From NCBI GenBank assembly GCA_028687495.1, contig JAQUAA010000001.1, positions 1-34,744 of the forward strand: DNA of 34,744 bases, in the 5' to 3' direction. This document shows, piece after piece, positions 9,787 to 34,744 of the stretch (positions are counted from its first letter, which is position 1; each line of letters opens with the position of its first letter). A program made the translations under genes and the position numbers. The notes under the pieces were generated by a model. The model saw only the letters and a program-made list of their open reading frames with translations. It was not told the DNA's origin and did no database searches. The DNA is from Minisyncoccota bacterium. Its GTDB lineage: Bacteria; Patescibacteriota; Minisyncoccia; Minisyncoccales; RBG-13-42-11.

Positions 9787-9791
9787 ATTTG

Positions 9792-12101: not shown

Positions 12102-12118
12102 AATTTTAATTTAAACTG

Positions 12119-12205: not shown

Positions 12206-12216
12206 TCAATAGAATT

Positions 12217-12290: not shown

Positions 12291-12298
12291 CTTTTCTG

Positions 12299-13551: not shown

Positions 13552-13552
13552 G

Positions 13553-13624: not shown

Positions 13625-13629
13625 ACGTG

Positions 13630-16223: not shown

Positions 16224-16228
16224 TTTAT

Positions 16229-17626
16229 TTAATATGTTTCCTCCCAGTGTTCTATGGTGACAATCGGTGAATAGGGAGGTTTTTCTCCTTCTGGCGGCTG
16301 GAGACCGCCCCAAATTCCCTCAATGATGATTTGATTGCTTAAAGTGATGTTTATTACCGCCCAAGCGCTGGTTAGAGAAATTTTCCTGCCCAATAAACCG
16401 CCCGTCAGATTAAAGGCCCAAGGCAAGCTTATCAATCTTACTTCGTCGTTGGCATAAACCAATCCCGTGATATTGATATCTTGGAACGAAGAATAAAGAC
16501 TGAAATTTATTTTTGATTTAGTCAAAAGACCGGACGGCTTTCCGAAACCAGGATCGTTAACCGTGATTTGGTCGAAGCCGCAATCTTTCTGTCCTTTATT
16601 GCTCCAGCAATTGCTTTCTCCGATGTTAATCGTGCTGTCAGCCACCAGGGCTCCGTTAACCACTAATCTTCTGCCGCCTTTCAAATCAATAAGGCCGGTA
16701 ACATAGGTGATTTCGTTGTTCAGGGTCATGGTACCGTTGAGCCCCACCTGCCATAGAAGATCTTCAAATTCCCCGGCGGTAAAAATGCAGTTTGTGGCGC
16801 ACTGGATTCCGTTGCATAAAACGCTGCACTGACCGGCTCCCTGCGCTGTTTCAGCTTTCTTTTTGTAAGAATTCGGGTCGTCAGAATCGAAATCAACCAT
16901 GGGCATGGAGATCACGCTGGGCGGACAACCCTCTTCTACGCAGTTCCCCTGGCAAATGTTTTTGGCGCAGCTGGCTGTGGCATTTAAGGTGCTGTTCCAG
17001 GAAACACTGAGATTATTTACAGCCAAAGCCTTTCCTTCCACCTTCTCAGTGCCTGGATTGTCAAAAACTGAAATCTGGCTCCACCTGTCGATATTGGCGT
17101 TGTTGTTGCTGAAAAGATTGCCGTCATACAGATTTATTAAGCTGGCGCTGATGCTTATATTCTCACTCGTGCCGCCGGATAAAAAAGGACTGTCGCCGGT
17201 TAAAGTGCCCAATGCCTTAAACACTTTCGTTTTAACCACTCTCTGGGCGGTTTTTCCGTTCACAATATTAATTGTCGAAGTGGCGATTATTTGCCCTCGG
17301 GCGCAATCTGAGTTCTGAATTTGAACCTGATAAAAACTATTTGGAAGCAGAGTATTACTTTTTGAAAAACTGGCTGACCAAGTGGAACAGCCGGGAGGAG
17401 TTTCAAAATTATTTTTCCAATCTGCATCGTTCTTCAGTTTCCAAATCGCCTCGTTAACCCCGGCCTCGGCCAAATAATAGGTTTGGGTGGCCGTAACTTG
17501 GCTTCTTGAGATTCTCGATTCGGTTATGGTGAAGGTCAGAAAATAGCTTCCTAAAATTAATAATACACCCAAAATCAAAGAAGTGATAATTAAAACTGTT
17601 CCTTTTTCCCGAGAAATCGTTTTCAT
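16229..17626 (-). CDS. Large PilX_N-like minor pilin / putative pilus-associated adhesin, Cys-rich
   Basis: 465-aa ORF. The N-terminal hydrophobic helix plus SRISRSQVTATQTYYLAEAGVNEAIWKL resembles the PilX N-terminal domain. A long Asn/Ser/Thr/Gly-rich extracellular region follows, with clustered cysteines (CAKNICQGNCVEEGCPPS; CSVLCNGIQCATNC). Confidence 0.6.
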   Translation of the reverse strand: MKTISREKGTVLIITSLILGVLLILGSYFLTFTITESRISRSQVTATQTYYLAEAGVNEAIWKLKNDADWKNNFETPPGCSTWSASFSKSNTLLPNSFYQVQIQNSDCARGQIIATSTINIVNGKTAQRVVKTKVFKALGTLTGDSPFLSGGTSENISISASLINLYDGNLFSNNNANIDRWSQISVFDNPGTEKVEGKALAVNNLSVSWNSTLNATASCAKNICQGNCVEEGCPPSVISMPMVDFDSDDPNSYKKKAETAQGAGQCSVLCNGIQCATNCIFTAGEFEDLLWQVGLNGTMTLNNEITYVTGLIDLKGGRRLVVNGALVADSTINIGESNCWSNKGQKDCGFDQITVNDPGFGKPSGLLTKSKINFSLYSSFQDINITGLVYANDEVRLISLPWAFNLTGGLLGRKISLTSAWAVINITLSNQIIIEGIWGGLQPPEGEKPPYSPIVTIEHWEETY

Positions 17627-17627
17627 C

Positions 17628-18179
17628 TTAGAAATTACGGCTGAAAATTTTTGTTTCCAAATTCAATGTTTTGTCTTTCTTGGCTAAGGTCAGGACGATG
17701 TTAATCACGTTGGAACCCCAGAAGTCCAATTTTTCCACCCACTCTCCGATAACCACTGCTTCTTGTAATGTTGTTGTCGCTAGGGTCTGACCGACGGGTG
17801 GAATCGCTTCCCAGGGTTGAAGTGTCTGGGTGGGATCGCCCGAAAAATAAAAACCCAGTACTTCTCTTTTGACTTCACTGTCGGTCTTAAAATAATGGAT
17901 ATAGTGATATGAGTCTGAAATATGTCCGTCTTCAAAAGTAATGGAGGAGGTGGCATCTTCTTCCGCGCTCGGAAAATCGCCGATCACTTCTTTCGCCTGG
18001 CGAATTTCCCGGGAGATTCTTTCTATGATCACCCTGCCATTTTGAGTGATTTCGGCCGAATTCTGACCTTCTCGATACGCTTTCTGGCTGAGATTAAAGG
18101 CCAAATAAACCGCTCCCATCACTATGACAAAAATGGTTATGGCGATTAAAAGTTCGGTTGAGGTAAATCCTTTTTTCAT
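17628..18179 (-). CDS. Prepilin-type N-terminal cleavage/methylation domain protein (PilW-like minor pilin)
   Basis: MKKGFTSTELLIAITIFVIVMGAV shows the class III signal peptide pattern G/F-T-x-x-E plus a hydrophobic helix. The product is 183 aa. Confidence 0.7.
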   Translation of the reverse strand: MKKGFTSTELLIAITIFVIVMGAVYLAFNLSQKAYREGQNSAEITQNGRVIIERISREIRQAKEVIGDFPSAEEDATSSITFEDGHISDSYHYIHYFKTDSEVKREVLGFYFSGDPTQTLQPWEAIPPVGQTLATTTLQEAVVIGEWVEKLDFWGSNVINIVLTLAKKDKTLNLETKIFSRNF

Positions 18180-18586
18180 TTCTGGGCGATTAAAGTTGCT
18201 AATTTAACCTCCTTTTCCCCGACCCCCAGAGGGGAATGCCAGAAGACCTGGATGGTTATCTTCTTTATCCCTAAGTCGCTTCCGGGGGGAACCGAAGGAT
18301 TATTCGGATCAAAATAATTTATTTCCGTTTTTCTCCGATAAGAAGTGAGGGCAGGGTCAAATCCATACGATTCATCAACAATACCCACCGCTATTTCGCT
18401 ATAAGACCGGGAAATTATTTCTTCCATTTTCCCCTGGCCCAACTGAACCGCCACGCTCGTCATCTGGGCTGATTTCTGAATGTGTGTTCCTGTCGGGAAA
18501 ATATAAAGGGAGGCGACAATGCCGACTGATAAAATAAAAATGGCCACCAATAATTCAACTATGGTAAAACCTTTTTCTTTTTTCAT
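18176..18586 (-). CDS. Prepilin-type protein (PilV/GspI-like minor pilin)
   Basis: MKKEKGFTIVELLVAIFILSVGIVASL is a canonical GFTxxE prepilin signal. The product is 136 aa, with an ATGA overlap to the next gene. Confidence 0.7.
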   Translation of the reverse strand: MKKEKGFTIVELLVAIFILSVGIVASLYIFPTGTHIQKSAQMTSVAVQLGQGKMEEIISRSYSEIAVGIVDESYGFDPALTSYRRKTEINYFDPNNPSVPPGSDLGIKKITIQVFWHSPLGVGEKEVKLATLIAQK

Positions 18587-18591
18587 ATTGA

Positions 18592-19020
18592 TTATTCGAC
18601 CACTTCAACGAAGCCTGAGGCTTTGATTGAAATGGTCTTCGTCTCTTTTTTGGTATTTTCCAGAACAACCGTTCCCGGCTCGCTGACTGCGCCATAGGGA
18701 TTGTACTTTACTTCGTCACCCGTAAAACCAGTTGGAGTTATGCTTTCTATCTCTTTGGGCAATATTTTTTCTTTGAGGACCGCTCCCTGGCATTCTTTGA
18801 GTTGATATTTTTTTTCCGAAGGAAAAAAAAGAAGACAATGTTCTTTCTGTTCGGTCACCGTAAGCTGCTGGGCGTAACGTAAATCAGCAACCAATTCCTG
18901 GGTGACGCTGCTTAGTTGGAGATTTGGCTGAAACGCTCTTAATGCCGGAAGGGCAAATAAAGCCAAAATTCCGATAATTCCGATAACTACCAAAATCTCT
19001 GGTAAAGTAAAACTTTTCAT
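18592..19020 (-). CDS. Prepilin-type protein (FimT/GspH-like minor pilin)
   Basis: MKSFTLPEILVVIGIIGILA is followed by a GspH-like segment (LQLSSVTQELVADLRYAQQLTV). The start is set at 19020 because the longer ORF overlaps the pilC stop at 19025-19027. Position -1 is Ser rather than Gly. Confidence 0.7.
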   Translation of the reverse strand: MKSFTLPEILVVIGIIGILALFALPALRAFQPNLQLSSVTQELVADLRYAQQLTVTEQKEHCLLFFPSEKKYQLKECQGAVLKEKILPKEIESITPTGFTGDEVKYNPYGAVSEPGTVVLENTKKETKTISIKASGFVEVVE

Positions 19021-19024
19021 CGTT

Positions 19025-20242
19025 TTATATGGCTCCCAACATGGAGTACATCGGCTGAACCATGGAAATGGCGAAAAAGCCAATTATTCCTCCGACGATA
19101 ATCATTAGAACCGGTTCGATGACCGAGGTTAAGTTTTTCGTGGCATAGCTTATTTCTTCCTCGAAGAAATCGGCCAATTTTGACAGAACGCTCGAAGTTT
19201 CTCCGGTTTCTTCTCCCACTTCCATCATCTGCATGACAATCAGAGGGAAAATGTCCTGATACGGCTTCATCGCCTCGGAAAGTTTTTCTCCTTTCCTGAC
19301 CTTTTCCGCCGCTTCCAAAATGGCTTTCTTATAATAAAAGTTGCCTAAAACTCCTGCTACGACGCTCAAGGATTTAACAATGGGCACTCCGGCGGCGGTC
19401 AAAGAACTCAATGTTCTGACGGTATAAGCTGAATTTGTTTTTTTGATCAAAGGGGAGACGATGGGAATTCTCAGAGTTATCGTATCAATGATCTTTTTCC
19501 CCCTTTTCGTTTTTGAAACAAACCAGAACGAAACGACAAGGACAAGCAGAATTAAGATGGAAAGCAGCCATTTTTCCGCCAAGAAGGTTCCCAGTCCTAT
19601 CACGATTTTGGTGGTCAGGGGCAGTTCTATTTCCAGTTCGGCAAAGGTTTCGGCAAGTTTGGGAACAACCATGACCAGCATTAAAATTCCTATGCCCACC
19701 ATCGCCAGAATGATTACCGCAGGATACATCATGGCCGCTTTAATTTTTTCTTTCAATTCGTACTCCCTTTCTATCTGTTGGGATAAAATTCTCAAAACTT
19801 CGTCGAGATTCCCGGCCTCTTCGCCCACTTTCACCATGTTTTGAAAAAGTTCGGAAAAAATACTGGGATACTTCGTCAAAGCATCGGAGAAGTTTTTTCC
19901 TTTGATAATCTGCTCTTTTATTTCAAGGAGCGCCTCTCTGAACTTTTTGCTTTTTGTTTGGGAAGCCAGCGTCTCCAAGGCCCGAGGCAGGGGAAGGCCG
20001 GAATTTATCATCACCTGAAGATTTCTGGTAAACATCATTTTCTCCGAAAGAGAAACCCCTCCGAAAAAAGGCAAGCTGAATTTTATTTTTATTTTTTCTT
20101 TTTCTTTCTCCGTTTCGGCTCTTATTAAAATAAAACCTTGTTCTCGCAAGGTCTTGGCCAGCTGTCTCTCGTCTTTCGCTTCAATGGTGCCCGATTCTTC
20201 TTCCCCTTTTAAAGATTTGGCAAAATAATGAAATGTTGGCAT
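19025..20242 (-). CDS. pilC: PilC/GspF-family type IV pilus platform protein
   Basis: Two GspF-type repeats with three TM segments. The typical N-terminus is MPTFHYFAKSLKGEEESGTIEA. The start is set at the ATG at 20242, just after the pilB stop (20247-20249). Confidence 0.92.
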   Translation of the reverse strand: MPTFHYFAKSLKGEEESGTIEAKDERQLAKTLREQGFILIRAETEKEKEKIKIKFSLPFFGGVSLSEKMMFTRNLQVMINSGLPLPRALETLASQTKSKKFREALLEIKEQIIKGKNFSDALTKYPSIFSELFQNMVKVGEEAGNLDEVLRILSQQIEREYELKEKIKAAMMYPAVIILAMVGIGILMLVMVVPKLAETFAELEIELPLTTKIVIGLGTFLAEKWLLSILILLVLVVSFWFVSKTKRGKKIIDTITLRIPIVSPLIKKTNSAYTVRTLSSLTAAGVPIVKSLSVVAGVLGNFYYKKAILEAAEKVRKGEKLSEAMKPYQDIFPLIVMQMMEVGEETGETSSVLSKLADFFEEEISYATKNLTSVIEPVLMIIVGGIIGFFAISMVQPMYSMLGAI

Positions 20243-20246
20243 TTGT

Positions 20247-22001
20247 TTATTCAACGATAACGCGGAGAACTTCTTCGATCGAAGTTGTTCCTTGGGCAGC
20301 CTTGATAAAGCCGTCCTCAATCATCGTTTTCATCCCTTCTTTCTGCGCCTGAGCCTGAATTTGGTCGGAATCTGCCTCCTTTATAATCAGTTCCTTGATG
20401 GTTTCTGTAATCGGCATAACTTCGTAAATTCCCAACCGTCCCCTGTAGCCATCGGGACATTCTTTAGAAGGTTTGGGCCTGTAAAAGACGATGTCTTTGA
20501 AAGTTTCTTTCGGTTTTATCAATTTTTCTTCCCGGAGAACGTGCAGAACTTTTTCCAGATCGCAATATTTCTTCAGGTTTTTTATTTCCGACTCCTTGAG
20601 AGTGTATTTTTCCTTTTCCCCGCAAAGTCTTCTTACTAATCTTTGGGCTAAAATAATACTCAAAGTCGATGAAATCAAGAAAGGTTCCACTTTCATATCG
20701 ATAAGACGGGGGATGGCGCCCGAGGCCGAGGTGGTGTGGAGGGTGGATAAAACCAGGTGGCCCGTCAGGGCGGCGTTAATGGCCAAAGAAGCTGTTTCGT
20801 TGTCTCTGATTTCACCGACCATGATAATATCCGGATCCTGCCTGACCAAAGAGCGGAGTCCCGAAGCAAAAGTCAGACCGATTTTTGGGTTAACCTGAGT
20901 CTGGTTTATTCTAGGCATCCTGTATTCCACCGGATCTTCAACAGTAGAAATATTCACTCCGGGCACGTTTAAAATTTCCATCATCGAGTAAAGGGTGGTG
21001 GTCTTTCCACAACCGGTAGGACCGGTTACCAAAATCATGCCGACTGGTTTTCTCAAATTGTCCTGAATGCCCTCCAAAGCATCTCCCCTCAAACCCAATT
21101 GTTCCAAAGTCAGGGCTTTAGCACTCTCGGGCAAGAGACGCATAACCACTTTCTCTCCATCGAAAACAGGCAAGATGGAAACCCTGACGGAATATTTATA
21201 ATCTTCGGTTTCGATTCTGAACCGCCCGTCCTGGGGCAAACGATGCTCATCGAGCTTAAGATTGGATAAGACCTTGATTCTGGCGACAATGCCCGAGGCA
21301 ACCTGTTTGGGAAGCGTCATGGCATCCCTTAAGACGCCGTCAATTCTGTATCTGACGATCACTTCTTTCTTGGTCGGTTCAATGTGAATATCGGAAGATC
21401 TTTCCAAAATGGCGTGTTTTAAAAGAGTATCGACGATCCTGACCACGGGCAGTTCCTCTGCCATTTTCTTTAATTCTTCCCCCTCTCCTTTTTCCATGGG
21501 AAAACCTTCTTTCACCGTTTTTATTCCTTCGGCTTCCTTTTTGATTATTTCTCCAAACTCCGCCTCCAGTGTTTTTTGATACTGGCGGAGAACGTTTTTA
21601 ATGCTTTCTGGCGTGGTTAAGCGGGGTAAAATTTTAAGATCGGATGTTTTTTTGATAAACTCAATCGTCCTCAAATCTTCCGGATCCAACATCGCCACTT
21701 CCAAATCCTTTCCCTTTTTTCTGAAAGCGACGATGTTGTTGGAACGGGCTATGGGCTCAGGAATGATCTTTAAAACATCGTCCTCAACTTTTTCTTTCTC
21801 CAGGCTGACGAAAGGAATGCCTAAAATATAGGCCTCCATTTTAATCAATTCTTCCTGTGCAATCAAACCCTGGGAAACCAAAACGTCTCCCACTCTCTGG
21901 TTGCTCTCCTGGGCTGATTTCAGAGCTTCTTCAAACTGCTTTTCGCTGATTAGTTTAGCATCTAAAAGAAATGCTTTTAGTTGCTGGGGTTCAACTCTCA
22001 T
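20247..22001 (-). CDS. pilB: PilB/GspE-family type IV pilus assembly ATPase
   Basis: N-terminal GSPII_E_N-like domain, Walker A GPTGCGKTTT, Walker B DPDIIMVGEIRD and His box TGHLVLSTLHT. Confidence 0.93.
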   Translation of the reverse strand: MRVEPQQLKAFLLDAKLISEKQFEEALKSAQESNQRVGDVLVSQGLIAQEELIKMEAYILGIPFVSLEKEKVEDDVLKIIPEPIARSNNIVAFRKKGKDLEVAMLDPEDLRTIEFIKKTSDLKILPRLTTPESIKNVLRQYQKTLEAEFGEIIKKEAEGIKTVKEGFPMEKGEGEELKKMAEELPVVRIVDTLLKHAILERSSDIHIEPTKKEVIVRYRIDGVLRDAMTLPKQVASGIVARIKVLSNLKLDEHRLPQDGRFRIETEDYKYSVRVSILPVFDGEKVVMRLLPESAKALTLEQLGLRGDALEGIQDNLRKPVGMILVTGPTGCGKTTTLYSMMEILNVPGVNISTVEDPVEYRMPRINQTQVNPKIGLTFASGLRSLVRQDPDIIMVGEIRDNETASLAINAALTGHLVLSTLHTTSASGAIPRLIDMKVEPFLISSTLSIILAQRLVRRLCGEKEKYTLKESEIKNLKKYCDLEKVLHVLREEKLIKPKETFKDIVFYRPKPSKECPDGYRGRLGIYEVMPITETIKELIIKEADSDQIQAQAQKEGMKTMIEDGFIKAAQGTTSIEEVLRVIVE

Positions 22002-22013
22002 AAAATTCTTTTT

Positions 22014-22385
22014 TTATTCTCCTAAAGCTTTTTTAATTTTTTGAACGACTTCTTCCAAGCTGTATTGGGTCTTGACCAGATAGGTGGTCGCTCCCAATTC
22101 CAAAGCTTTTTCCACGTCCTCTAACCCTTCAAGATTGGTGAGAACGATGACTGGTATCTCTTTGGTCTCATTGTCTTCTTTCAGTTTTTTCAGAACATCA
22201 AACCCGTGAATTTTAGGTAGAATTAAATCTAATAAGATTATATTTGGCTTGTTTTCTTTTGCCAATCTCAAACCTATCTCACCATCCAGGGCGGAGATCG
22301 TCTCATAGCCTTCCTGTTTCAAGATTTCTCCGAAAGTTTTTTGAAGAGCTGATTCGTCTTCAATAAAAAGTATTTTTTTTGACAT
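22014..22385 (-). CDS. Single-domain (CheY-like) response regulator
   Basis: 123-aa receiver domain only (ILFIEDE..., phospho-acceptor context ILLDLILPK, and conserved T and K positions). There is no output domain. Confidence 0.9.
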   Translation of the reverse strand: MSKKILFIEDESALQKTFGEILKQEGYETISALDGEIGLRLAKENKPNIILLDLILPKIHGFDVLKKLKEDNETKEIPVIVLTNLEGLEDVEKALELGATTYLVKTQYSLEEVVQKIKKALGE

Positions 22386-22391
22386 ATGATT

Positions 22392-23339
22392 TTACTTAAT
22401 TGGTAACGTGAACCAGAAGGTCGACCCGACGCCTTCTTGGCTTGTGAATCCTATTTTTCCACCTGATTTTTCAATGATTGATTTGGTGATATAAAGGCCC
22501 AAACCCGATCCTTCGGTTTGATGCCTTTTGATGTTTCCCGAACGGAAGAATTTCTGAAAAATATATTTCTGATCGTCCCGCGGGATGCCGACGCCGTTGT
22601 CTTTTACCTCGAAATAAAGATTGCTGTTCTTTTTCTTCAATTGCAGCTCTACTTTTCCTTTTTCCTTGACATAACGGATGGCGTTGTCCAAAAGGTTATC
22701 GACAGCCAATTTCAATTGAGATGGGTCGGCGGTAATCTGAGGGAGATTTCTTGCTAGATTAAATTTCATTTCAACATTGGAAGCCCTGGCGAAAATTTCC
22801 GTGTCTTTTATTGCAGTCTTAACCAGATCCTCCAAAGAAATCTCTTCTTTTTTAAGAGGAAGTCTGCCCTGTTCGATTCTCGATACGGTCAATAAGTCCT
22901 GAACCAATTCTTCCATTCTTTTGCTGTTTTCCCTTAAGATCCGGAAATATTCCAGCTGTTTCTCGGAAACCGAAGAAATTCTTCCCGACATTAAAAGTTC
23001 TATAACCCATTTCAGATTGGAAAGAGGGGAACGCAGCTGATGACTGACAACGCTGACGAATTCCGATTTCATCCTGTTGGCTTCGGCCAATCTTTCAAAA
23101 CTTCTGGTGATGATGGCGGCGATGATAAACAAAATGGCGCTGATTAAAAGAACTATCAGAGCCACCAAAAGAGGGTCATCTATGTATTTGCTGCCGATGG
23201 CATAAGTAATCAGGGTAGAGAAAATTATCACCATGCCCATCACCAAAAAAAGAAATTGGGGGCACTGCCAGAGGGTCAAATCGTATTTGCGGCACTGCTT
23301 AACGATATTAAATTGGTCGCAAATTTTCTCAGAAATCAT
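22392..23339 (-). CDS. Sensor histidine kinase (HisKA + HATPase_c) with two TM helices and a minimal external loop
   Basis: H-box FVSVVSHQLRSPL, N box DNLLDNAIRY, G boxes DNGVGI and GSGLGL. The two TM helices are separated by only ~8 residues (GSKYIDDP). Confidence 0.9.
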   Translation of the reverse strand: MISEKICDQFNIVKQCRKYDLTLWQCPQFLFLVMGMVIIFSTLITYAIGSKYIDDPLLVALIVLLISAILFIIAAIITRSFERLAEANRMKSEFVSVVSHQLRSPLSNLKWVIELLMSGRISSVSEKQLEYFRILRENSKRMEELVQDLLTVSRIEQGRLPLKKEEISLEDLVKTAIKDTEIFARASNVEMKFNLARNLPQITADPSQLKLAVDNLLDNAIRYVKEKGKVELQLKKKNSNLYFEVKDNGVGIPRDDQKYIFQKFFRSGNIKRHQTEGSGLGLYITKSIIEKSGGKIGFTSQEGVGSTFWFTLPIK

Positions 23340-23405: not shown

Positions 23406-23476
23406 CGGGGTGTAGTGCAATGGCAGCACGAGTCCTTTGGGAGGATTTAATCTGGGTTCAAATCCCAGCACCCCGA
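23406..23476 (+). tRNA. tRNA-Pro (anticodon UGG)
   Basis: Acceptor CGGGGTG/CACCCCG (C1:G72, typical of bacterial tRNA-Pro), anticodon stem AGTCC/GGATT with loop TTTGGGA, and T arm CTGGG-TTCAAAT-CCCAG. Confidence 0.88.
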
Positions 23477-23477
23477 T

Positions 23478-23551
23478 GCGGGCGTAACACAATGGCAGTG
23501 TGATAGCTTTCCAAGCTATTTATGTGGGTTCGATTCCCATCGCCCGCTCCA
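23478..23551 (+). tRNA. tRNA-Gly (anticodon UCC), CCA encoded
   Basis: Acceptor GCGGGCG/CGCCCGC with discriminator U then CCA, anticodon stem ATAGC/GCTAT with loop TTTCCAA. Confidence 0.88.
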
Positions 23552-25308: not shown

Positions 25309-25956
25309 TTATCCCCCGAAAGCCCCCTTGATGATGGCGGGAAAGGCCTTGGCCAGCAAGACGATGGCTACGGCAATCAGCGTCCAGAGGATTATCTGGC
25401 GGCCCCTGCTTACCTTAGCCGGGTCGCCCCCCGAAGTCAGTATCAAATAGGCGGCATAGATTATCATGATCGGGGCCACGGCCATGGCTAAAAAGAAAAG
25501 GAAATTCAAAAAAGCATCAAGAGCATCGATCAAATTGTCCGCAGCCAAAGGATTAGTCAAATCAATGGGACTGCCGTCGCCTCCATCGCCATCTGGCGGG
25601 GGAGCCAGGTCTTCCGTAGTAAAGGAACATATTCCGCTCGGAGCCCTGTCAGAACATTCCGGATTACCGCAGCTGACAACATACCACTGATAGTCTTCCG
25701 AGGGCGACAAGCCGGTAACCTGATACTGAGAGACTGAAGGATAACGATCCTGCCAATTGGCATCTTCCACTCTTTTATAATAGAGTTCGTAGTGATGGAC
25801 TGCCTCGTCGCTCCAGTCGAGCAAAACCGCCAGGGGCTGCGTCCCACTGCAAGGAGTCAATCCGGTTGGGGGCGCGGCAGCCAAAACGAAAGCCGGAAAA
25901 ATAACCGATGATCCTAAAATTGAGACTGTTAAAAATTTTAAAAGGTTTTTAGTCAT
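25309..25956 (-). CDS. Secreted FN3-like domain fused to a VirB2/TrbC-like pilin module
   Basis: 215-aa ORF with four parts:
- A signal peptide.
- A ~95-aa segment with a fibronectin-III-like pattern (PPTGLT...LLDWSD...YELYYKR...W...SVSQYQVTGLSPSEDYQWYVVSC).
- A PPPDGDGGDG linker.
- A C-terminal two-helix module homologous to the 180..515 product. Confidence 0.55.
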   Translation of the reverse strand: MTKNLLKFLTVSILGSSVIFPAFVLAAAPPTGLTPCSGTQPLAVLLDWSDEAVHHYELYYKRVEDANWQDRYPSVSQYQVTGLSPSEDYQWYVVSCGNPECSDRAPSGICSFTTEDLAPPPDGDGGDGSPIDLTNPLAADNLIDALDAFLNFLFFLAMAVAPIMIIYAAYLILTSGGDPAKVSRGRQIILWTLIAVAIVLLAKAFPAIIKGAFGG

Positions 25957-25978: not shown

Positions 25979-27004
25979 TTATTCCTCAACAACGACCCAG
26001 GCGGTAAAACAAGAGTTCTTTTCTCCTAACGCATCGGAAACAACGACTCTTGGCTCGAAAGTGTTTGGTTTCTGGTATCGATGGATTGGATTTTGGTCGG
26101 CTGATTTTTCTCCATCGTTAAAATCCCACTGATAGGATAAACTATCTCCGTCCGGGTCAATTGCCTCGATCTCAAACTTGAATTCCGTACTAACACTCCC
26201 CTGATTGGGAGAAACCTTGCAAAAAGAAATTTCAGGCGGCCGATTTTGGGCAAGAACGAACTTTGCTATCTCGCCCACGGTTAGGTTAAGATATTTTCCT
26301 TTTTCAGCATCGTAGTGGTCGGCGCATTTGACGAAAACGGAATAATTTTCCTCCGGCAAAGCATATTCAAAAGAAGCCGAATTGTTTTCAATTTTCATTT
26401 GGCCTTTGTTCTCGTCGTTAAGATAAAACCAGCAGTAACTGACTTTCAAGTTGTCTGAAATTTCAGCCAAGTATTTATTGCCTTCTCGGGACACCTTGCC
26501 GACTTCTGGCTTTGCCCAATCGACATTATAAGTCAAAGAGCTGATTTCGCCCCGGTTTTCTTTGTCGTCAAGCGCGTAAACGTAGAGAGTGCAGGCGTTC
26601 TCGCCCTGAGATCGGCAATTCATATTTTCTCCGACCGTGATCTCTAAATTGGCGTTGCATTTTCTTTGGCCTCCGCCAGACATCTCTTTTTCGACGTTGT
26701 CGTAAAGAAAATAATAGCATCTGCCGAGAGCCGAACCTGCGGGAGCCAAATCGTAAATATAGCGATAGAAATTGGAGTTTTGCCAGCTTTCTCCCAGATC
26801 GGCAACGTATTCTCTTTTTTCTAAATCATACCGGTAAACGGAAGAAACCGGTCCCTGAATCTTTGCCATGGCTTCTTCCTGTTTTTTTATTTCTTTGGGA
26901 ACACCGCTGGTTGCGGGAAACAATAAAAAGAAAATAAAAAGCCCTAGTCCTGCCAGGGTTAAAATTAGGATGAAAACTTTTTTAGAAAGTTTTATCTTGT
27001 TCAT
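25979..27004 (-). CDS. Membrane-anchored surface protein with C-terminal PKD domain
   Basis: 341-aa ORF with an N-terminal TM anchor, a Cys-containing middle region, and a C-terminal PKD signature ([22 protein letters not shown]...[20 protein letters not shown]). An ATGA overlap joins it to the clpP stop. Confidence 0.7.
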
Positions 27005-28228: not shown

Positions 28229-30217
28229 TCAGATCAAGAATCCGACGATTAAAAGGGCGACGATGTTGAGAACTTTAATCATGGGGTTGATGGCGGGGCC
28301 GGCCGTATCCTTATAAGGATCGCCGACCGTATCGCCAGTCACAGCTGACTGGTGGGCGAAAGAACCTTTTCCTCCGAAATTTCCTTCTTCAATATATTTT
28401 TTAGCATTGTCCCAAGCAGCTCCGCCCGAAGTCATTTGAAGAGCCAAGAACATTCCGACGATGATTGACCCAATCAGCAATCCTCCCAAAGCTTCTGGTC
28501 CCAGTAACAATCCTATCAAAATCGGGAAAACGACCGGCAGCAAAGCAGGTATCATCATTTCTTTCAAAGCGGCCTTAGTCACAATATCAACGCATCTTGA
28601 ATAATCCGGCTTGGCTTCTCCCGACATTAACCCTTTTATTTCCCTGAATTGCCTTCTTACTTCTTCAACCACGGAACCTGCCGCCTTGCCCACTGCTGTC
28701 ATCGACAGGGAAGCGAAATAATAGGCGACGATACCGCCCGAAAAAAGACCAATCAAAACTTTTGGATCTTGCAGGATAAACTGAACTTTCTTCCCCAAAT
28801 CAGCCAATTCCTGGGTATAAGCCGAGAATAAAACCAAAGCAGCCAATCCTGCGCTGGCTATGGCGTAAGCCTTGGTGACGGCCTTGGTGGTGTTTCCTAT
28901 GGCGTCCAGGGCATCGGTAACTTTGCGGTTTTCTTCTGGAAGTCCCGACATTTCCGAAATGCCGGAAGCATTGTCGGTAATGGGACCGTAAGCATCAAGG
29001 GCGATGATTAGGCCAGTCAAAGAAAGCATGGCCACTGCCGAAACCGCCAGACCATAAATGCCAGCCAGAGCAAAACTGATCAAAATTCCAGCGGAAATGA
29101 CGATAACCGGCAGGATGGTTGATTTCATCCCCACGGCCAGACCGGCGATTATATTCGTGCCGTGTCCTGACTGGCTAGCTAAGGCAATGGACTGAACCGG
29201 AGAATATTTTTTGGAAGTGAAAAATTCGGTGATTAAAAACATTGCCCCGGCAATCAAAAGACCGATCAAGGCCGGGCCGTAAAGATTGAGAACCGGCATT
29301 TTCAAACTCTGGCTGAACTGCAGGATGACGGGAAAAAAGCCGGCCGCAGACAGAATTCCGGCGACAATCAATCCTTTATAGAGAGCCGAAATAATGTTTT
29401 GGTTTTTCCCCAGCCTGACAAAAAAAGTGGCGATGATCGAAGCCAAAATGGCAATCGAACCCAATATCAGGGGGAAGAAAACAGCTTCTGATAAACTGGG
29501 AAATAACAGTCCGCCCAAAACCATGGCGGCGACGATCGTCACAACGTAAGTTTCAAAAAGATCGGCGGCCATTCCAGCGCAATCACCGACATTGTCTCCC
29601 ACCTGATCGGCAATCACGGCTGGATTTCTGGGATCGTCTTCGGGAATACCCTGCTCAACTTTACCGACCAAATCAGCACCAACATCGGCGGCTTTGGTGT
29701 AAATACCGCCTCCCAACCTGGCAAAAACCGAAATTAAACTTCCGCCAAAACCCAGAGCAACCAAAGCTTTTAAATCCTGGGTTAAAAGATAAAAAACGGA
29801 AACAGAAAGAAGACCAAGACCGGCTACTAAGAATCCGGTAACCGAACCTCCCTTAAAAGCCAAACTAAGAGCGGATTTCAAGCCGTTTTTGGCTGATTCA
29901 GCCACTCTGACGTTGGCCCGAGTGGAAACAATCATACCGAAAAAGCCAGCCAAGCCCGAAGCCGCTGCTCCCAATAAGAATCCTAAGGCAGTTTTGATGC
30001 CAAAAATAATAAGCAGAATGAAAAACAGCAAAAAGGCGATAAGAGCAATCGTCTTATACTGCCTTTTTAAAAAAGCCATGGCGCCTTCTTTGATCGCTTC
30101 TGAAATTTCAATCATTCTGCCCGAACCCGCAGCCGCCCGGTTCACTTCTCGAATTAAAAAATAAGCGAAAATTAAAGAAAAAACGGAAACGACGATTGGG
30201 ACCAGTAACATTAACAT
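28229..30217 (-). CDS. hppA: Membrane-integral proton-translocating pyrophosphatase (K+-independent-type motif)
   Basis: 662-aa polytopic protein with [38 protein letters not shown] and [11 protein letters not shown]. Confidence 0.95.
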
Positions 30218-30219: not shown

Positions 30220-31473
30220 TTAACTTTTCTTCTTTGTTTCTTTCTCTTTTTTAGTTTTTTCTTTGACCTTTTTTTCTTTTTTTTCTTTTTTTTCTTCTTT
30301 TTTCATTTCTTTCTCAATCTCTTCGGCCTCGGCCGGGGATTTAACGTCTATTTTCCAACCGGTGAGTTTCGCCGCCAATCTTACGTTCTGGCCGTCTTTG
30401 CCTATGGCCAAGGATAACTGGTCTTCGGGCACTACGGCCAATGCCTTGTTCTTGGGCAGGATTTTCACGTCTTGAACTTTGGCCGGAGAAAGGGAATTGG
30501 CGATATATCTTTCAGGCTCGGGAGAATATTCGATGAGGTCAATTTTTTCTCCGCCCAGTTCGTTAATCACCGCCATGACTCTTGTTCCTTTCTGACCGAC
30601 GCAACTGCCGATGGGATCGATTCCCTCCACTTCCGTGGCCACGGCAATCTTAGATCTGGAACCCGCTTCCCTAGCTATTGATTTAATTTGAACCTGTTCT
30701 GAAGAAATTTCCGGCACCTCAAGTTCAAAAAGCTTGGAAATTAATTTGGGATAAGATCTGGATAAGATAACGACCGGACCCTTGGACGTTTCCTCCACTT
30801 TCAAAACATAAACCTTTAATCTCTGACCCGGCCGATAAAACTCTCCCGGAACCTGTTCTTCTTTTATCAAAATTCCCAAGGTTTTGCCGATGTCCAAAAG
30901 AACGTTTCTTCCCTCGATTCTCTGGACGATTCCGGAGATGATTTCTCCTTCTTTTCCCTTGTATTCATTGAAAACGCTTTCTTTTTCCGCTTCTCTTATT
31001 CTCTGTAAAATCACCTGTTTTGCCGTTTGAGCGGCGATCCGGCCGTAATCTATTCTTGCTTCCAAGGGGATTTCCAATTCTTCGCCAGCTTTTATTTTTG
31101 TTTTTATCTTCTTGGCCTCTTCAAGCATGATGTGTTTTTCCGGATTGAAACGGACTTTTTCTTTGCCGGTTTGAACTTTAATTGAAACTGATTCTTCTTC
31201 TTTGGAAAAATCTTCGGCCGGTAAATTCTTCAATTCCTCCAGCTCTTTTTCCGAATAGATCATTGATTTATCAACGACCAGTTTCACCTGCCAAAACTTA
31301 ACATCGCCTGATTCCGAATCAAGTTTGGCTTTGATTATCTGGCCTTTTTTGCCGTAATCTTTTTTATAAGCAGCGGCAATCGCCATTTCGATGGTCTCCA
31401 AAACTTTTTCTGGAGAGATGCCTTTTTCTTCGGCGATTTGAGCAATCGCCGACGTGAAATTTTTTATGTCCAT
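30220..31473 (-). CDS. nusA: Transcription termination/antitermination factor NusA with Lys/Glu-rich C-terminal tail
   Basis: NusA N-terminal domain, S1 domain ([21 protein letters not shown]), two KH domains ([11 protein letters not shown]; [13 protein letters not shown]), and the tail [30 protein letters not shown]. Confidence 0.92.
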
Positions 31474-31540: not shown

Positions 31541-34123
31541 TTAATTGTCAACTGGGTAGAAGGCCACGAGCAAGGCTCCGGGCCCAGTATGGGTCGCCAC
31601 CACCGGAGAAACGGGGGAAACGAAAGAAACTTTTATTTTTGGCAGTTTTTCAAGCTCCTCTTTCAGTTTTTCGGCTTCTTTCAAATTATCAGCATAACCA
31701 ATGGCTGCTCTTATTTCTCTTCCCTTTCTCAGTAAGTCTATTTTTTCGGCTAAAATTCGGGAAACATCTTTGCCGAAATTAATTCCGAAAAATTTGACTC
31801 TGCCGTTTTTCAATCCGACGACCAGTCTGATTCCCAGCTTCTGCATGAAATAAACCGGTTTAACCAGGATTTTGGGCAGTTTGAATCTTCCGCCGCGGAC
31901 CACGTAATGGAAATCGTTAATGCATCCCAAAAGAGTGATCTTGGGACAGAATTCTTTCAGTTTCTCCACTATTTCTTCCGTTTTTTCGCCCTGGGAAATT
32001 AATTCTTGGGTTTTCATGACGACCAATCCTTCGCCGACTTCGGCGGTAAAACAATCGAAAACATAAAGATTCAATTTCGCCGGTTTTTTGTAAAAGGATC
32101 TGGCGATTCTGGCTGAGCTGTAAGCTCCGGAAAGTTTTGAAGAAACGGTGATGATCAATATTTTTTCAAACTTTTCCAAAGCTTTTTGATAGGCTGAAAG
32201 ATATTCCTTGAAAGAAGGAGCCGAAGTAGTGGGAAGAGATCTTCCTTTATTGAGCGCTTCTTTCATTTTTTTGTAGATTTCCTCTTTTGAAGTTATGAAC
32301 TCGCCGTCAGGTAATCTGGTAGTGAAAGGTACTTCGGTAATGCCGTATTTCTCCAGGAAGTCTCTTGGCAAATCGGCGATTTCATCAATCACCAATCCCA
32401 AGGGTTTCTTTTCGGTTTTTTTCATCTGAGATTCCATGTCTTCAACCCGCAATTCGATTTCCGGGAAGTCCCTGATCTTTTCCGAAACTGACTCGGGCGA
32501 GTTTGTATGAATATGGAATTTTATTTTGTCTTCCGATTCCAAAACTTCCAGACTGTCGCCCAAAGACGACAATTCTTTTTTCAGATCTTCCGCATTGGTT
32601 GCCGGCGTTTTTCTGAATAGGGCAACCACTTCGTACCGGTATTTCAATTTTTCTCCCGTTTCAGGCTGGACAATGGGGGAAGTTACTTCGGTTTTGGAAT
32701 TAATGGTAATTCCCTTCAAGCTCTCGATCCAGGCCTCGATAATTTTGAGGAATCCCAGGCCTCCGGCATCAACCACGTCATTCTCCTTCAAAACCTGGAG
32801 CTTCTCTTTGGTCTCCTTAAGCGCGATGTCGCTGACCCTGTGGGCTTCTTCCAAAACCTTGATGATGTTCTTTTCTTTTTTTATTTTTGAAACTTCGAGA
32901 GCTTTTTCTCCCGCCGCCCTGATGACGTCGAGAATCGTTCCCTCAACGGGTTCAGCCACAGAACTCCTCGCTGCCTTAATCCCTCTCTGCATAGCCAAAG
33001 AAAAATGAAAGGCATCGATTGTTTCCAAATGTTTTATCCTGTCTAAAAATTCAATGATGTAGCCGGTGTAAATCATACCCGCATTCCCCCTGGCATTGAT
33101 CATGGCCGCCTCTTTGATGTCCTCGTTAAGTTCTCTGAAGTCGGAATAACTCTTTTGGGAAATCACCCCTTCAACGCCCAAGAGCGTGGCTGCCAGATTG
33201 TAGCCCGTATCTTTGTCGGCCACCGGAAAAACATTGATCTTGTTTATTTCTTCCTGGTGCAAGACGATTTTCTTAGAAGCAGCGATCATCATTCCCTTGA
33301 AATCTTCGATGCCGATTTCCAGAACTATTTTTTCTTCTTTTTTGAGAATGAATTTATCTATCGGTTTTTTCGCCATTTTCGCTCCGAATTTAGCTATCTG
33401 CCAGCCGAATTTCGTCGGCAGCCAAATGGGCAGGGTCAGGGGCTTCATGATTTTGGTGACGCGGCTCGGATTTTCTTTTTCTTTTCTGATGATTCTTTTG
33501 ATTCTCAAATCAAAAAGCGCCTCGTTGTTATCAAACAAAAGGCGGTTTCTGATTAGGGCTGATTTATTTTGAGAGGTTTTAATTTCTCTTATCGGACTTA
33601 GTCTTTTAATGAAAATCGGTACCAGAGAAAGCAAGGTAAAGAGACCGGCGGTCTGCAATTGACCGAAATAATAAGAAAGATAAATTGCCACAGCCAAAAA
33701 TAAAATTGTGCCGATGGCTAAATTCCAAATAATGCCCAGGACAATCAGGGGAATAATGGAATAAAGAAGAATCTGGGGAGACAAGGCCAGAAAGACGCCG
33801 GCAAAAGTGCCGATGCCCCTGCCGCCGGCAAACTTTAAAAAAACAGACCAGTTGTGGCCGACAACGGCAGCTAAACCTGAAAAAACCTGCACTTCCGCTG
33901 AAAATCCCAATCTTTGGGCGCCGGAAACGACCAGGTAACCCTTAGCGACATCCAAAAGCCCGGTTAAGATTCCCTGCCATTTCCCGACGTTTTTGAAAAC
34001 GTTGCTGCCCGAAGTTTTTTTCCAGCCGATTTCCAAAACGTTTTTATCGGAAAAACGACCAATGAGATAGCCGAAGGGGATTGATCCTGCAATATAACTT
34101 AAAATTATCCAGATGAAAGACAT
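31541..34123 (-). CDS. Tripartite fusion protein: PlsY-like acyl-phosphate:glycerol-3-phosphate acyltransferase + FakA-like Dak2/DhaL and middle domains + DegV (FakB-like fatty-acid-binding) domain
   Basis: One uninterrupted 860-aa ORF.
- aa 1-175 are polytopic and PlsY-like (IAGSIPFGYLIGR; LLDVAKG; GHNWSVFLKFAGGRGIGT).
- aa ~271-465 are Dak2/DhaL-like (INVFPVADKDTGYNL; ARGNAGM; VVDAGGLGF).
- aa ~490-565 resemble the FakA/YloV middle region (YRYEVVALF...LGDSLEVLESEDKIKFHIHTNSP...RVEDMESQ).
- aa ~575-860 are DegV (LGLVIDEIADLP; TTSAPS; ITVSSKLSGAYSSA; THTGPGALLVAF). Confidence 0.8.
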   Translation of the reverse strand: MSFIWIILSYIAGSIPFGYLIGRFSDKNVLEIGWKKTSGSNVFKNVGKWQGILTGLLDVAKGYLVVSGAQRLGFSAEVQVFSGLAAVVGHNWSVFLKFAGGRGIGTFAGVFLALSPQILLYSIIPLIVLGIIWNLAIGTILFLAVAIYLSYYFGQLQTAGLFTLLSLVPIFIKRLSPIREIKTSQNKSALIRNRLLFDNNEALFDLRIKRIIRKEKENPSRVTKIMKPLTLPIWLPTKFGWQIAKFGAKMAKKPIDKFILKKEEKIVLEIGIEDFKGMMIAASKKIVLHQEEINKINVFPVADKDTGYNLAATLLGVEGVISQKSYSDFRELNEDIKEAAMINARGNAGMIYTGYIIEFLDRIKHLETIDAFHFSLAMQRGIKAARSSVAEPVEGTILDVIRAAGEKALEVSKIKKEKNIIKVLEEAHRVSDIALKETKEKLQVLKENDVVDAGGLGFLKIIEAWIESLKGITINSKTEVTSPIVQPETGEKLKYRYEVVALFRKTPATNAEDLKKELSSLGDSLEVLESEDKIKFHIHTNSPESVSEKIRDFPEIELRVEDMESQMKKTEKKPLGLVIDEIADLPRDFLEKYGITEVPFTTRLPDGEFITSKEEIYKKMKEALNKGRSLPTTSAPSFKEYLSAYQKALEKFEKILIITVSSKLSGAYSSARIARSFYKKPAKLNLYVFDCFTAEVGEGLVVMKTQELISQGEKTEEIVEKLKEFCPKITLLGCINDFHYVVRGGRFKLPKILVKPVYFMQKLGIRLVVGLKNGRVKFFGINFGKDVSRILAEKIDLLRKGREIRAAIGYADNLKEAEKLKEELEKLPKIKVSFVSPVSPVVATHTGPGALLVAFYPVDN

Positions 34124-34129: not shown

Positions 34130-34158
34130 ATTTTACTGTGGACCCAGGCAGAATTGAA
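34130..34158 (-). promoter_or_regulatory. Possible promoter embedded in the 3' half of tRNA-Ala: TTCAAT (T loop)-N17-TAAAAT, 6 nt upstream of the ATG at 34123
   Basis: The minus strand reads TTCAAT (34158-34153, the tRNA T loop), a 17-nt spacer, TAAAAT (34135-34130), aaagaa, then ATG. Confidence 0.3.
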
Positions 34159-34209
34159 CTGCCATCTGCGCAATGCGAATGCGCCGTTCTGCCGTTAAAC
34201 TATGGGCCC
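34139..34209 (-). tRNA. tRNA-Ala (anticodon CGC)
   Basis: Reverse complement: acceptor GGGCCCA/TGGGTCC with G3:U70, D arm GTTT-AACGGCA-GAAC, anticodon stem GCGCA/TGCGC with loop TTCGCAT, and T arm GGCAG-TTCAATT-CTGCC. Confidence 0.85.
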
Positions 34210-34211: not shown

Positions 34212-34744
34212 TCATTCCTCGTAATAACTCACCACCAAAGTGCCGGGGCCCCCGTGGCTGGCCAGAGCCAAGGTCATTTCAGTAACATATAAAACTTCCT
34301 TGCCAATTTTTTCAAGCTCTTCTTTCAGTTTAGCAGCTTCTTGGGGAACGTTGGCGTGACTAATGGCAACTTTTATTTTCCCCGCTTTTCCTTTTAATTC
34401 CCTGACAATGGCTTCGATCCTATCTTTGGCCGAAACCTTTATTCCCCCCAAGGTCAGTTTCCCTTCTTTTATGGTTAAGGCGACTCTGATTCCTTTTTCC
34501 TGGAAAAAAGTCATTATCCTGGCTAGGTTCCCGGAAATCCTGCCGCCTGCCACTGCCCAAGATAAGTCCTCCAGAAAAGCGATTGTTTTTATCTTTTTTC
34601 TGAATTGAATCATGCTTGCCAATATTTCCTGAATTTTTCTGCCAACCCTTACCATCTCCTGGGCTTTCATCACTAGTATGCCCTGGGGAACCGAAACCAG
34701 AAGAGAATCAAAAACTTCCACCTTGGAAGACTTTTCGCCGAGCA
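34212..34744 (-). CDS. DegV-family (FakB-like) fatty-acid-binding protein, partial (5' end outside the window)
   Basis: The reading frame is open to the window edge (codons upstream of the listed GTG read LGEKSSK). It carries the C-terminal DegV features VEVFDSLLVSVPQGILVMKA and SHGGPGTLVVSYY. Confidence 0.8.
   Translation of the reverse strand, partial: LGEKSSKVEVFDSLLVSVPQGILVMKAQEMVRVGRKIQEILASMIQFRKKIKTIAFLEDLSWAVAGGRISGNLARIMTFFQEKGIRVALTIKEGKLTLGGIKVSAKDRIEAIVRELKGKAGKIKVAISHANVPQEAAKLKEELEKIGKEVLYVTEMTLALASHGGPGTLVVSYYEE

Follow-up and report, generated by a model that had tools for sequence, protein, structure and literature searches.

In Firmicutes, the hand-off from the fatty-acid kinase FakA/FakB to the membrane acyltransferase PlsY is established (PMC9136124). 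The 34,744-nt stretch of Minisyncoccota DNA analysed here (contig JAQUAA010000001.1), which is called the window in its full length, contains a gene whose 860-aa product joins a PlsY-like membrane domain, the N-terminal and middle domains of FakA (FakA_N and FakA_M) and a complete DegV/FakB-type domain in a single chain; amino acid (aa) numbers refer to this product. The architecture and its PlsY subfamily are new and are assembled from domains of known families, and the sequences that carry them are numerous but mis- or under-annotated. Judged from its sequence, the protein is probably a membrane-anchored, self-contained fatty-acid-activating and acyl-transfer enzyme.

FakA_N of Staphylococcus aureus binds ADP and two Mg ions through residues N32, D38, D40, T41, N82 and D185, and the adjoining FakA_L/M dimerises and requires residues C240, H282 and H284 (PMC9136124). 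Mutation of the Cys in this Cys/His site lowers FakA activity approximately 100-fold. In Streptococcus suis FakA, the Cys/His residues make up a structural zinc finger of the C1H3 type, and the protein is a head-to-tail dimer with FakA_C beside FakA'_N (PMC10848957). FakA_N joined to FakA_L is catalytically active by itself; the C-terminal FakA_C, a degenerate FakB-like fold, merely raises the affinity for FakB (Michaelis constant 0.09 vs 0.99 uM) (PMC9136124).

In Aquifex aeolicus PlsY (aaPlsY), acyl-phosphate is held by residues His92 and Thr41 and by the backbone of loop 104-107, and glycerol 3-phosphate (G3P) is held by a phosphate clamp of Ser35, Arg45, Lys104 and Asn180 together with Ser142 and His177 (PMC5700162). 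Single substitutions in the clamp mostly leave <=25% activity (PMC5700162). Mutants R45K and K104R retained 6% and 25% activity, respectively, single mutants of His177 or Asn180 retained <=6.5%, and T41S on the acyl-phosphate side retained 45% (PMC5700162).

Probst et al. described Nealsonbacteria, members of the candidate phyla radiation (CPR), that have PlsY and PlsC without PlsX or acyl carrier protein (ACP) machinery, and asked for the source of their acyl-phosphate (PMC7242380). Villanueva et al. mention homologues of geranylgeranylglyceryl phosphate synthase (GGGPS) and digeranylgeranylglyceryl phosphate synthase (DGGGPS) in one Parcubacteria genome. In the searchable full-text literature, with subscription-only articles outside it, no description was found of a PlsY-FakA-DegV fusion, of a CPR kinase with FakA_N, FakA_M and DegV in cis, or of the PlsY paralogue family described below.

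Domain architecture and distribution of the fusion

The gene is one reading frame that runs without interruption from ATG to stop, as the open reading frame (ORF) list bears out, and the motifs by which a first-pass annotation had divided the product into PlsY, FakA-like and DegV parts all occur where it had placed them. Searches with profile hidden Markov models (HMMs) recovered the PlsY, Dak2, FakA middle and DegV families (Table 1), and no match to FakA-like_C (PF13684) was returned by Pfam anywhere in the 860-aa product. A full-length AlphaFold2 model, built on an alignment of 119 sequences, has a mean predicted local distance difference test (pLDDT) score of 82.6 and four well-defined domains; the linkers between them (aa 219-263, 475-491 and 565-570) are of low confidence. 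Foldseek matched this model to S. suis FakA in the Protein Data Bank (PDB) with E = 5e-26. Profile searches, AlphaFold2 domains and Foldseek folds thus agree that the three-way architecture, as first proposed from the motifs, is real. Synthesis of the product in pieces, through an internal start of translation or through processing, would also be compatible with the sequence.

The same four Pfam domains are found in collinear order in 119 of the best 120 clusters (90% identity) from a search of 5.8 billion public proteins, at 52-90% identity to the query and lengths of 814-920 aa. These 119 clusters derive from NCBI, JGI, ENA and Logan assemblies, many of them independent, and the domain junctions are conserved. 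Database labels give the homologues as 'glycerol-3-phosphate acyltransferase' (automatic) or 'hypothetical', and their sources as Pacebacteria, Parcubacteria or Patescibacteria; the window's own protein is entered at NCBI from a metagenome-assembled genome labelled 'Candidatus Pacebacteria'. The first-pass statement that no description of the architecture was known holds for the literature searched; in the databases the architecture is common and accounts for hundreds of entries.

A scan of GTDB, with one genome per species and domains mapped by HMMs made from the authors' own alignment, returned 56 loci (numbered with the prefix L), all labelled Patescibacteria save for one bin labelled Dehalococcoidales. 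The fusion is complete in approximately 17 of them, is cut by a contig end in L019 and is split over two contigs in L017/L036, and fusion-type GTDB species representatives number approximately 19. In L018 (6225-9055, Nealsonbacteria CG11), the PlsY-like gene adjoins a separate gene for FakA_N, FakA_M and DegV, and motif 1 of the PlsY-like protein is more canonical (signature TQTRHR...); this split arrangement could represent either an intermediate stage or a form that arose by fission. The remaining loci carry the same PlsY-like domain as a standalone protein of 217-250 aa, which stops just short of the linker (at 223 aa in L030, for example).

A kinase module without the PlsY-like domain and linker is abundant in CPR as the 'DegV family protein' of approximately 595 aa (Nealsonbacteria/Paceibacterales), and Dak2, FakA_M and DegV were found together in 120 of its 120 top clusters. 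It is the same single-chain kinase as in the fusion and often stands in an operon with a PlsY paralogue, but in some lineages its C-terminal domain has degenerated to a FakA_C-like form.

A putative fatty-acid kinase with FakB in cis

The FakA_N domain matches PDB entries 7w7h_A (E = 1e-33) and 7rm7 (E = 1e-23) and superposes on S. aureus FakA_N (7rzk) in Foldseek with a template modelling (TM) score of 0.96 and a root-mean-square deviation of 1.5 A. All six ATP/Mg ligands of FakA_N are present as residues N297, D303, D305, T306, N347 and D452, each invariant in the 119 homologues, and the kinase has retained these functional residues, as the earlier reading required. In FakA_M, residues H537 and H539 of the His-x-His motif are likewise invariant in the 119 homologues, and the alignment of this domain contains no equivalent of the fourth His of the S. 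suis-type zinc finger.

The C-terminal DegV domain scores 186.3 bits against the TIGR00762 DegV model (cutoff 99.7), matches 25 DegV/FakB entries in the PDB and resembles FakB1/DegV structures with Foldseek TM scores of 0.83-0.86. It has the full DegV length with the tunnel inserts present, and its motifs TTSAPS, SSKLSG, GGR and HTGPG align with TSQPS, SSKLSG, GGR and H-GPG of Thermotoga maritima TM841 and Bacillus subtilis DegV. Residue T633 is conserved in 106 of the 119 homologues and R746 in 117, H845 is His in 101 and Tyr in 16, and S661 and S662 also lie at a conserved motif. We take T633, S661/S662 and H845 to be the carboxylate-binding Thr, Ser and His residues, and R746 to be the phosphotransfer Arg, by analogy with work on S. 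aureus FakB (PDB 4x9x; 7scl, R173A). The earlier claim that a genuine DegV domain stands in the place of FakA_C is upheld by profile, fold and motif evidence alike.

Comparison with FakA and FakB of Firmicutes (S. aureus and S. suis; 7rm7, 6w6b, 7w7h) reveals an identical DhaL-like ligand set, the His-x-His motif and a DegV-fold carrier with carboxylate motifs, and acyl-phosphate would be the expected product of the fusion. The two systems differ in that FakB replaces FakA_C in cis and is the covalent C-terminal part of the kinase, unlike the free, soluble, single-domain FakB, and in that the kinase module of the fusion is tethered to a membrane acyltransferase. Furthermore, the NCBIfam scores fall below the FakA cutoffs: far below for the FakA equivalog (NF038248), at 146.9 bits against 975, and at 233.9 bits against 396.1 for YloV (TIGR03599), which is covered only at positions 1-302 of 530. 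In the NCBIfam YloV/FakA models, only the first ~302-316 of 530-549 positions aligned. Replacement of FakA_C by a tethered FakB is mechanistically coherent, since FakA_N and FakA_L suffice for catalysis and FakA_C serves FakB affinity. On this sequence evidence, the window protein is best read as FakA_N and FakA_M with a putatively functional FakB in cis at the position of the docking domain.

Across CPR, the C-terminal domains of FakA-like proteins grade from a complete DegV (the window, 31544-32413; L018, L021, L022) to degenerate, FakA_C-like forms (L045, L047, L048, L052), in which an approximately 45-residue T-S insert, the GGR motif and the His residue have been lost. This series looks like snapshots of FakA_C evolving out of FakB.

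The PlsY-like membrane domain

Modelled alone, aa 1-218 reach a pLDDT score of 95.9 and a predicted TM (pTM) score of 0.90. Foldseek matched this model to A. aeolicus PlsY only, with TM scores of 0.73-0.79 (next match, E = 2.8), and phmmer aligned it to 5xj5 with E = 8e-18. Residues were mapped from an ungapped HMMER alignment, from a MAFFT alignment with Escherichia coli PlsY and from column counts over the 119 homologues. On the acyl-phosphate side, aaPlsY residue His92 corresponds to H90 (115/119) and Thr41 to S40 (118/119), and the Gly-rich phosphate-hole loop corresponds to G100-G101-R102-G103, which is invariant. Residues invariant in all 119 homologues are G33, W34, K36, S38, G39, N41, V42, N91, W92, S93, G100-G103, K173, R174, L175 and P177.

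The domain shares with aaPlsY (5xj5-5xj9) the seven-helix fold, the equivalents of His92 and Thr/Ser41, the Gly-rich loop and the cytoplasm-facing active site, and its loop 1 is positively charged. From the seven helices and basic loop 1, the C-terminus, and hence the kinase, would lie in the cytoplasm beside the active site; the cytoplasmic placement put forward in the first-pass annotation is supported by this topology. Unlike aaPlsY, the domain has a family-specific C-terminal extension comprising KRLSP, NRLxFD and an amphipathic helix at 207-217, belongs to a separate clade and is fused to a presumed supplier of acyl-phosphate. The top NCBIfam match of the domain is PRK14417, 'membrane protein', at 104.8 bits against a cutoff of 249.

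An exhaustive HMMER search with aa 1-218 returned only 24 clusters (50% identity) at E <= 1e-30, fused and standalone together, below which a continuum grades into ordinary PlsYs. Fused and standalone domains interleave in crude identity clustering. This 'hi' type of paralogue (GW[RK]KTSGSN) is accompanied in CPR by a 'lo-A' type (GTGNVGAMNV.R, GGKA, IKQWPRF) and a 'lo-C' type, and L021 also has a fully canonical PlsY whose signature, SNTRHKHNRE, equals E. coli PlsY at ten key positions. The wider clade with GGRG, an invariant R174 and NRLLFD takes in proteins from Chloroflexota/Anaerolineae. The Dehalococcoidales bin (L040, CAZNSC010000067.1) contains a CPR-type hi paralogue and, on the opposite strand, encodes a classical FakA as well as a DegV; either it is mis-binned or the paralogue is genuinely present in Chloroflexota.

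Gene neighbourhood and supply modules

On the minus strand, the window runs in the order free DegV, tRNA-Ala(CGC), fusion gene, nusA, H+-pyrophosphatase and ClpP. The free DegV gene and the fusion gene lie 88 nt apart, and the tRNA gene occupies this interval, where a common transcript, if the two are co-transcribed, would be processed. Nearly all of the 56 loci have nusA directly downstream of the hi-type paralogue, and a free DegV gene lies immediately upstream of the hi-type gene in L003, L009, L014, L019, L026, L033 and L056. The membrane H+-translocating pyrophosphatase gene (28229-30217, -) adjoins nusA downstream, and the order nusA, H+-pyrophosphatase and ClpP is kept in most related loci. 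No fab, plsX, plsC, cdsA, acpP or canonical plsY gene is present in the 34.7-kb window, whose other genes have housekeeping functions or belong to a type IV pilus cluster.

Neighbourhoods were read within +/-10 kb of each hit, and gene absences among the 56 loci hold for that span. In class I, the standalone paralogue follows FabA-NMO, NMO (FabK-like), one or two PlsC-type acyltransferases, biotin carboxylase, biotin carboxyl carrier protein, BirA and carboxyltransferase, sometimes with a lo-type PlsY and/or a free DegV after the carboxyltransferase. Of the standalone loci with at least 5 kb of upstream sequence, 18/28 are of this class; L031:2055-10634 is an example, and the same order recurs in L024, L026, L029, L030, L032, L037-L039, L041, L043, L046, L053, L055 and L056. 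The class I set amounts to fatty-acid-synthesis-like genes in organisms reported to be without ACP machinery. In at least nine class I loci, the hi-type paralogue is the sole PlsY homologue beside PlsC-type acyltransferases, a point in favour of its being their glycerol-phosphate acyltransferase.

Class II consists of the fusion, at times with a free DegV before it. The cluster of fatty-acid synthesis-like (FAS), carboxylase (ACC) and PlsC genes is found at 0/11 fused loci with at least 5 kb of upstream sequence, as against 18/28 unfused loci (Fisher p = 2e-4, a value that is tempered by counting the loci as independent, uncorrected for phylogeny, and by an absence that extends to 10 kb from the locus).

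Class III comprises genes for a CDP-alcohol phosphatidyltransferase, a PHP protein, a CarS-like protein, FakA-DegV(-like), lo-A PlsY, a geranylgeranyl-reductase-like protein, UbiA, a polyprenyl synthase, a PcrB/GGGPS-like protein and the standalone paralogue (L022, L045, L047, L048 and L052; fragments in L033 and L050). L021 has only the first part of this run, from the CDP-alcohol phosphatidyltransferase to the lo-A PlsY, and none of the isoprenoid genes. In L021, L022, L045, L047, L048 and L052, FakA-DegV forms an operon with a PlsY paralogue that comes after it. An archaeal-type ether-lipid gene set thus occurs in some Patescibacteria interleaved with FakA-DegV, free DegV and two PlsY paralogues (L047:9084-13534), and in L047 the hi-type and PcrB genes have 4 nt in common. 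An ether-lipid link is not claimed for the window, as such genes are found within 10 kb of none of the fused loci.

A Fak module, in fused form or in an operon, thus appears at the loci from which the FAS-like cluster is missing. This comparative context supports a scavenging role. The first-pass proposal of an organism that cannot make fatty acids and lives by scavenging gains from the comparison of fused with unfused loci, but the inability to make fatty acids is seen at the locus only; since related Nealsonbacteria-type genomes carry fatty-acid-synthesis-like genes, it would apply at most to the fusion-bearing lineages.

Proposed function and alternative explanations

In the mechanism that we infer, the C-terminal DegV domain would pick up free fatty acid supplied by the membrane or by a donor, and the FakA_N ATP-Mg domain, aided by FakA_M, would phosphorylate its carboxylate to form acyl-phosphate. 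Tethering DegV at the site of the FakB-docking domain would make a docking step unnecessary, and the active site is probably built across a FakA_M-mediated dimer. The flexible linker of approximately 45 residues would tie the cytoplasmic kinase module to the cytoplasmic C-terminal end of the PlsY-family domain, which would receive the labile acyl-phosphate and pass the acyl group to a phosphorylated glycerol acceptor. This acceptor is most likely glycerol phosphate, bound in an atypical, remodelled pocket and giving a lysophosphatidate-type product. The free DegV encoded upstream probably serves this kinase or acyltransferase as a further carrier of fatty acids. Rosetta-stone evidence is consistent with joint action of the parts, which are found fused, as adjacent genes (L018), in an operon, or with a free DegV directly upstream.

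Single-chain dihydroxyacetone kinases of the DhaK-DhaL type (for example, in Citrobacter freundii) offer an analogy only: an EDD-fold substrate domain is joined to a DhaL-type ATP domain, with the active site across a dimer. Their domain order is the reverse of that in the fusion, their substrate is a small triose and not a lipid, and they are without a membrane domain.

Several observations weigh against the proposed function. The AlphaFold2 model of the full-length chain has a pTM of 0.41 and no confident inter-domain packing, which leaves the channelling geometry without support. At the FakA_M Cys position, Glu is found in 101, Asp in 11 and Cys in only 7 of the 119 homologues (E498 in the window protein), which may represent a thiolate-to-carboxylate ligand swap. 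The membrane domain scores 83.6 bits against the NCBIfam PlsY equivalog TIGR00023, below the cutoff of 137.2, and the hi-type paralogue coexists with other PlsY paralogues in many genomes. Most of the G3P ligands are altered: Ser35 of the aaPlsY clamp corresponds to W34 and Lys104 to R102, the functionally important Motif 1 residue Asn37 corresponds to K36 (all three invariant in the 119 homologues), and Arg45 of the clamp corresponds to K44 (100 Lys and 16 Arg of 119). His177, which binds the 2-hydroxyl group, and Asn180 of the clamp have no counterpart, and neither His nor Asn is present in aa 160-180. Motif 3 is ambiguous, with MAFFT setting R174 and P177 opposite His177 and Asn180, and a manual alignment setting V168 and F171 there; where the HxxN motif would be stand the invariant K173-R174-L175-S-P177 and an extra conserved segment, R194-L-x-F197-D198.

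The assignment of the membrane domain to PlsY in the first-pass annotation therefore stands for the fold and for the His, Ser and GGxG residues of the acyl-phosphate side, but not for the canonical G3P clamp, which is mostly lost, nor at the equivalog score. Identity with canonical PlsY was rejected on the clamp residues and the TIGR00023 score. Complete inability to use glycerol phosphate was set aside, since the domain is the only PlsY homologue beside PlsC in many loci. Fold and acyl-phosphate side point to a PlsY-like acyl-phosphate acyltransferase, and the acceptor side does not of itself suggest G3P; with the clamp mostly lost and the paralogue in a separate clade, lysophosphatidate is a plausible product rather than a proven one. 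Glycerol phosphate is slightly favoured as the acceptor, despite the rebuilt pocket, because PlsC and the hi-type paralogue as the only PlsY occur together in class I.

Split or unfused arrangements elsewhere (L018, and the contig break in L017/L036) might suggest that mis-assembly or a sequencing frameshift joined separate plsY, fakA and degV genes, but the chance of this is negligible: the 119 independent collinear clusters with conserved junctions and the ~19 GTDB species representatives exclude the frameshift or chimeric assembly that the first-pass annotation had wished to see checked. It is highly improbable that the fused DegV acts only as a FakA_C-like platform that recruits the free DegV/FakB encoded upstream and is not itself a carrier. 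The fused domain does occupy the FakA_C position, FakA_C is itself a degenerate FakB-like fold (PMC9136124), and the window, L003, L009, L014 and L019 each have a free DegV gene directly upstream. However, the fused domain keeps the T-S insert, SSKLSG, GGR, H-GPG and its full length, whereas the truly FakA_C-like CPR domains (L045, L047, L048, L052) have lost those motifs; moreover, at approximately 12 of 17 fused loci no free DegV lies within 10 kb, and the roles of carrier and platform could coexist. A third proposal, that the PlsY-like domain is non-catalytic and tethers the kinase or senses lipid while other acyltransferases use the acyl-phosphate, draws on the loss of the equivalents of S35, N37, H177 and N180 and on the other PlsY paralogues in related genomes. 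An anchoring role alone is very unlikely because purifying selection is very strong on exactly the active-site loops, which are invariant in 119 sequences, and the same motifs are kept in standalone 217-250-aa proteins that have nothing to anchor; the His92 equivalent and the phosphate-hole loop are also retained.

The identity of the acceptor is contested more closely. A tentative alternative, unlikely on present evidence, would have the domain depend on acyl-phosphate as donor but acylate, in place of glycerol 3-phosphate, a lipid-linked or other glycerophosphate. Candidates for it are a lysophospholipid, in an ACP-free step of the PlsC-like or Lands type, and the prenylglyceryl phosphate product of PcrB/GGGPS, whose acylation would yield ether/ester hybrid lipids. 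Replacement of the G3P clamp with retention of the acyl-phosphate side is consistent with such a role, as are the coexistence with canonical or near-canonical PlsYs and the reported enrichment of CPR in lysolipids (PMC7242380). In L022, L045, L047, L048 and L052, furthermore, the hi-type gene ends the run of geranylgeranyl reductase, UbiA, polyprenyl synthase and PcrB genes, with CarS-like and CDP-alcohol phosphatidyltransferase genes nearby and, in L047, the 4-nt overlap with PcrB; L033 has the order PcrB, DegV, PlsY-like. However, a plain first-step acyltransferase fits the at least nine loci in which the paralogue is the sole PlsY homologue beside PlsC in the FAS/ACC/PlsC cluster, and the strongly basic pocket (K36, K44, R102, K173 and R174, invariant or nearly so) could still clamp glycerol phosphate. 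Canonical PlsY already accepts both glycerol-phosphate stereoisomers (PMC13400652), and ether-lipid genes are found neither in the window nor within 10 kb of any fused locus. A combined reading, in which a new acyl-phosphate acyltransferase whose acceptor is non-canonical (either a lysophospholipid or, for some CPR, the prenylglyceryl phosphate of an adjacent PcrB/GGGPS) joins the in-cis kinase as a one-polypeptide, ACP- and CoA-independent lipid-assembly machine, is doubtful.

Other features of the window

Table 1. Features of the 34,744-nt window, with domain limits of the fusion product and the evidence for each assignment.
Feature	Position	Strand	Evidence
Fusion gene, PlsY-like / FakA_N / FakA_M / DegV	31541..34123	-	ORF list; Pfam; NCBIfam; 119 collinear homologue clusters
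PlsY-family 7-helix membrane domain, 'hi'/GW[RK]KTSGSN paralogue type	aa 1-218 = 33470..34123	-	Pfam G3P_acyltransf (PlsY, PF02660; aa 8-172, E 1.9e-28); phmmer 5xj5; AlphaFold2; Foldseek; invariant motifs
Basic linker, predicted flexible, membrane domain to kinase	aa 219-263 = 33335..33469	-	pLDDT <50; moderate conservation only
FakA_N (Dak2/DhaL-like) ATP-Mg domain	aa 264-474 = 32702..33334	-	Pfam Dak2 (aa 300-466, E 6e-27); PDB matches; Foldseek; invariant ligands
FakA middle domain (dimerisation / metal site)	aa 492-566 = 32426..32650	-	Pfam FakA-like_M (PF21645; aa 494-569, E 6.5e-14); alignment to S. suis FakA; column counts
Complete DegV/FakB-type fatty-acid-binding domain, at FakA_C position	aa 571-860 = 31544..32413	-	Pfam DegV (PF02645; aa 576-857, E 2.5e-47, 162 bits); TIGR00762; PDB; Foldseek
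Free DegV/FakB gene, 3' part, cut by window end, directly upstream of fusion	34212..34744	-	Pfam DegV (E 1.8e-23, profile positions 112-279)
tRNA-Ala(CGC), between free DegV gene and fusion gene	34138..34209	-	ARAGORN
nusA, conserved downstream neighbour marking the orthologous locus	30220..31473	-	ORF translation
Type IV pilus cluster: PilO, PilN, PilM, three N-methyl pilins, PilC-like T2SSF, PilB-like T2SSE ATPase	14040-23339	-	
Two small T4SS_pilin-like proteins and a PKD-domain protein	180-515, 25309-25956, 25979-27004	-	
tRNA clusters	7567-7716, 8698-9057, 9703-9863, 12118-12370, 13552-13703, 23406-23551		

Sixteen tRNA genes lie in the 34.7 kb, as six small clusters and one lone gene. 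Among them, a tRNA-Ile gene at 7567-7641 has the anticodon UAU, an unusual one in bacteria. Within the type IV pilus cluster, a 465-aa ORF (16229-17626) has no Pfam match, and genes for a response regulator and a histidine kinase follow the pilus genes. In the Nealsonbacteria genome of L030, genes syntenic with the PKD and pilin-like pair follow downstream of ClpP.

Implications

For CPR/Patescibacteria, which account for a large part of bacterial diversity, membrane construction is a standing question. A PlsY homologue and a full fatty-acid kinase, whether fused, split into separate genes or joined in an operon, offer a testable answer to the question of the acyl-phosphate source in CPR without PlsX. 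In the proposed answer, free fatty acid and ATP would give acyl-phosphate and then lipid, with no need for a carrier protein; the fusion could thereby provide a route from free fatty acid to a membrane-lipid precursor without ACP or PlsX. For membrane growth in synthetic cells, so compact a route, with one gene leading from fatty acid to lysolipid, could also be useful.

For the Fak and PlsY families, the fusion is a natural experiment that backs two ideas from Firmicutes: that FakA_C is only a device for docking FakB, and that FakB delivers acyl-phosphate straight to PlsY. The altered acceptor pocket and the exchange of supply clusters (FAS-like, Fak and ether-lipid) point to unexplored acyltransferase chemistry. 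If the combined reading is true, a nusA-proximal acyltransferase conserved across Patescibacteria would be fed by interchangeable modules, namely an FAS-like/ACC cluster, a fused Fak module or an archaeal-type ether-lipid cluster; hybrid or remodelled membranes would then be implied, and swaps of module would mark transitions in lifestyle. The type of supply module may serve as a genomic marker of lipid autonomy versus scavenging in ultra-small bacteria.

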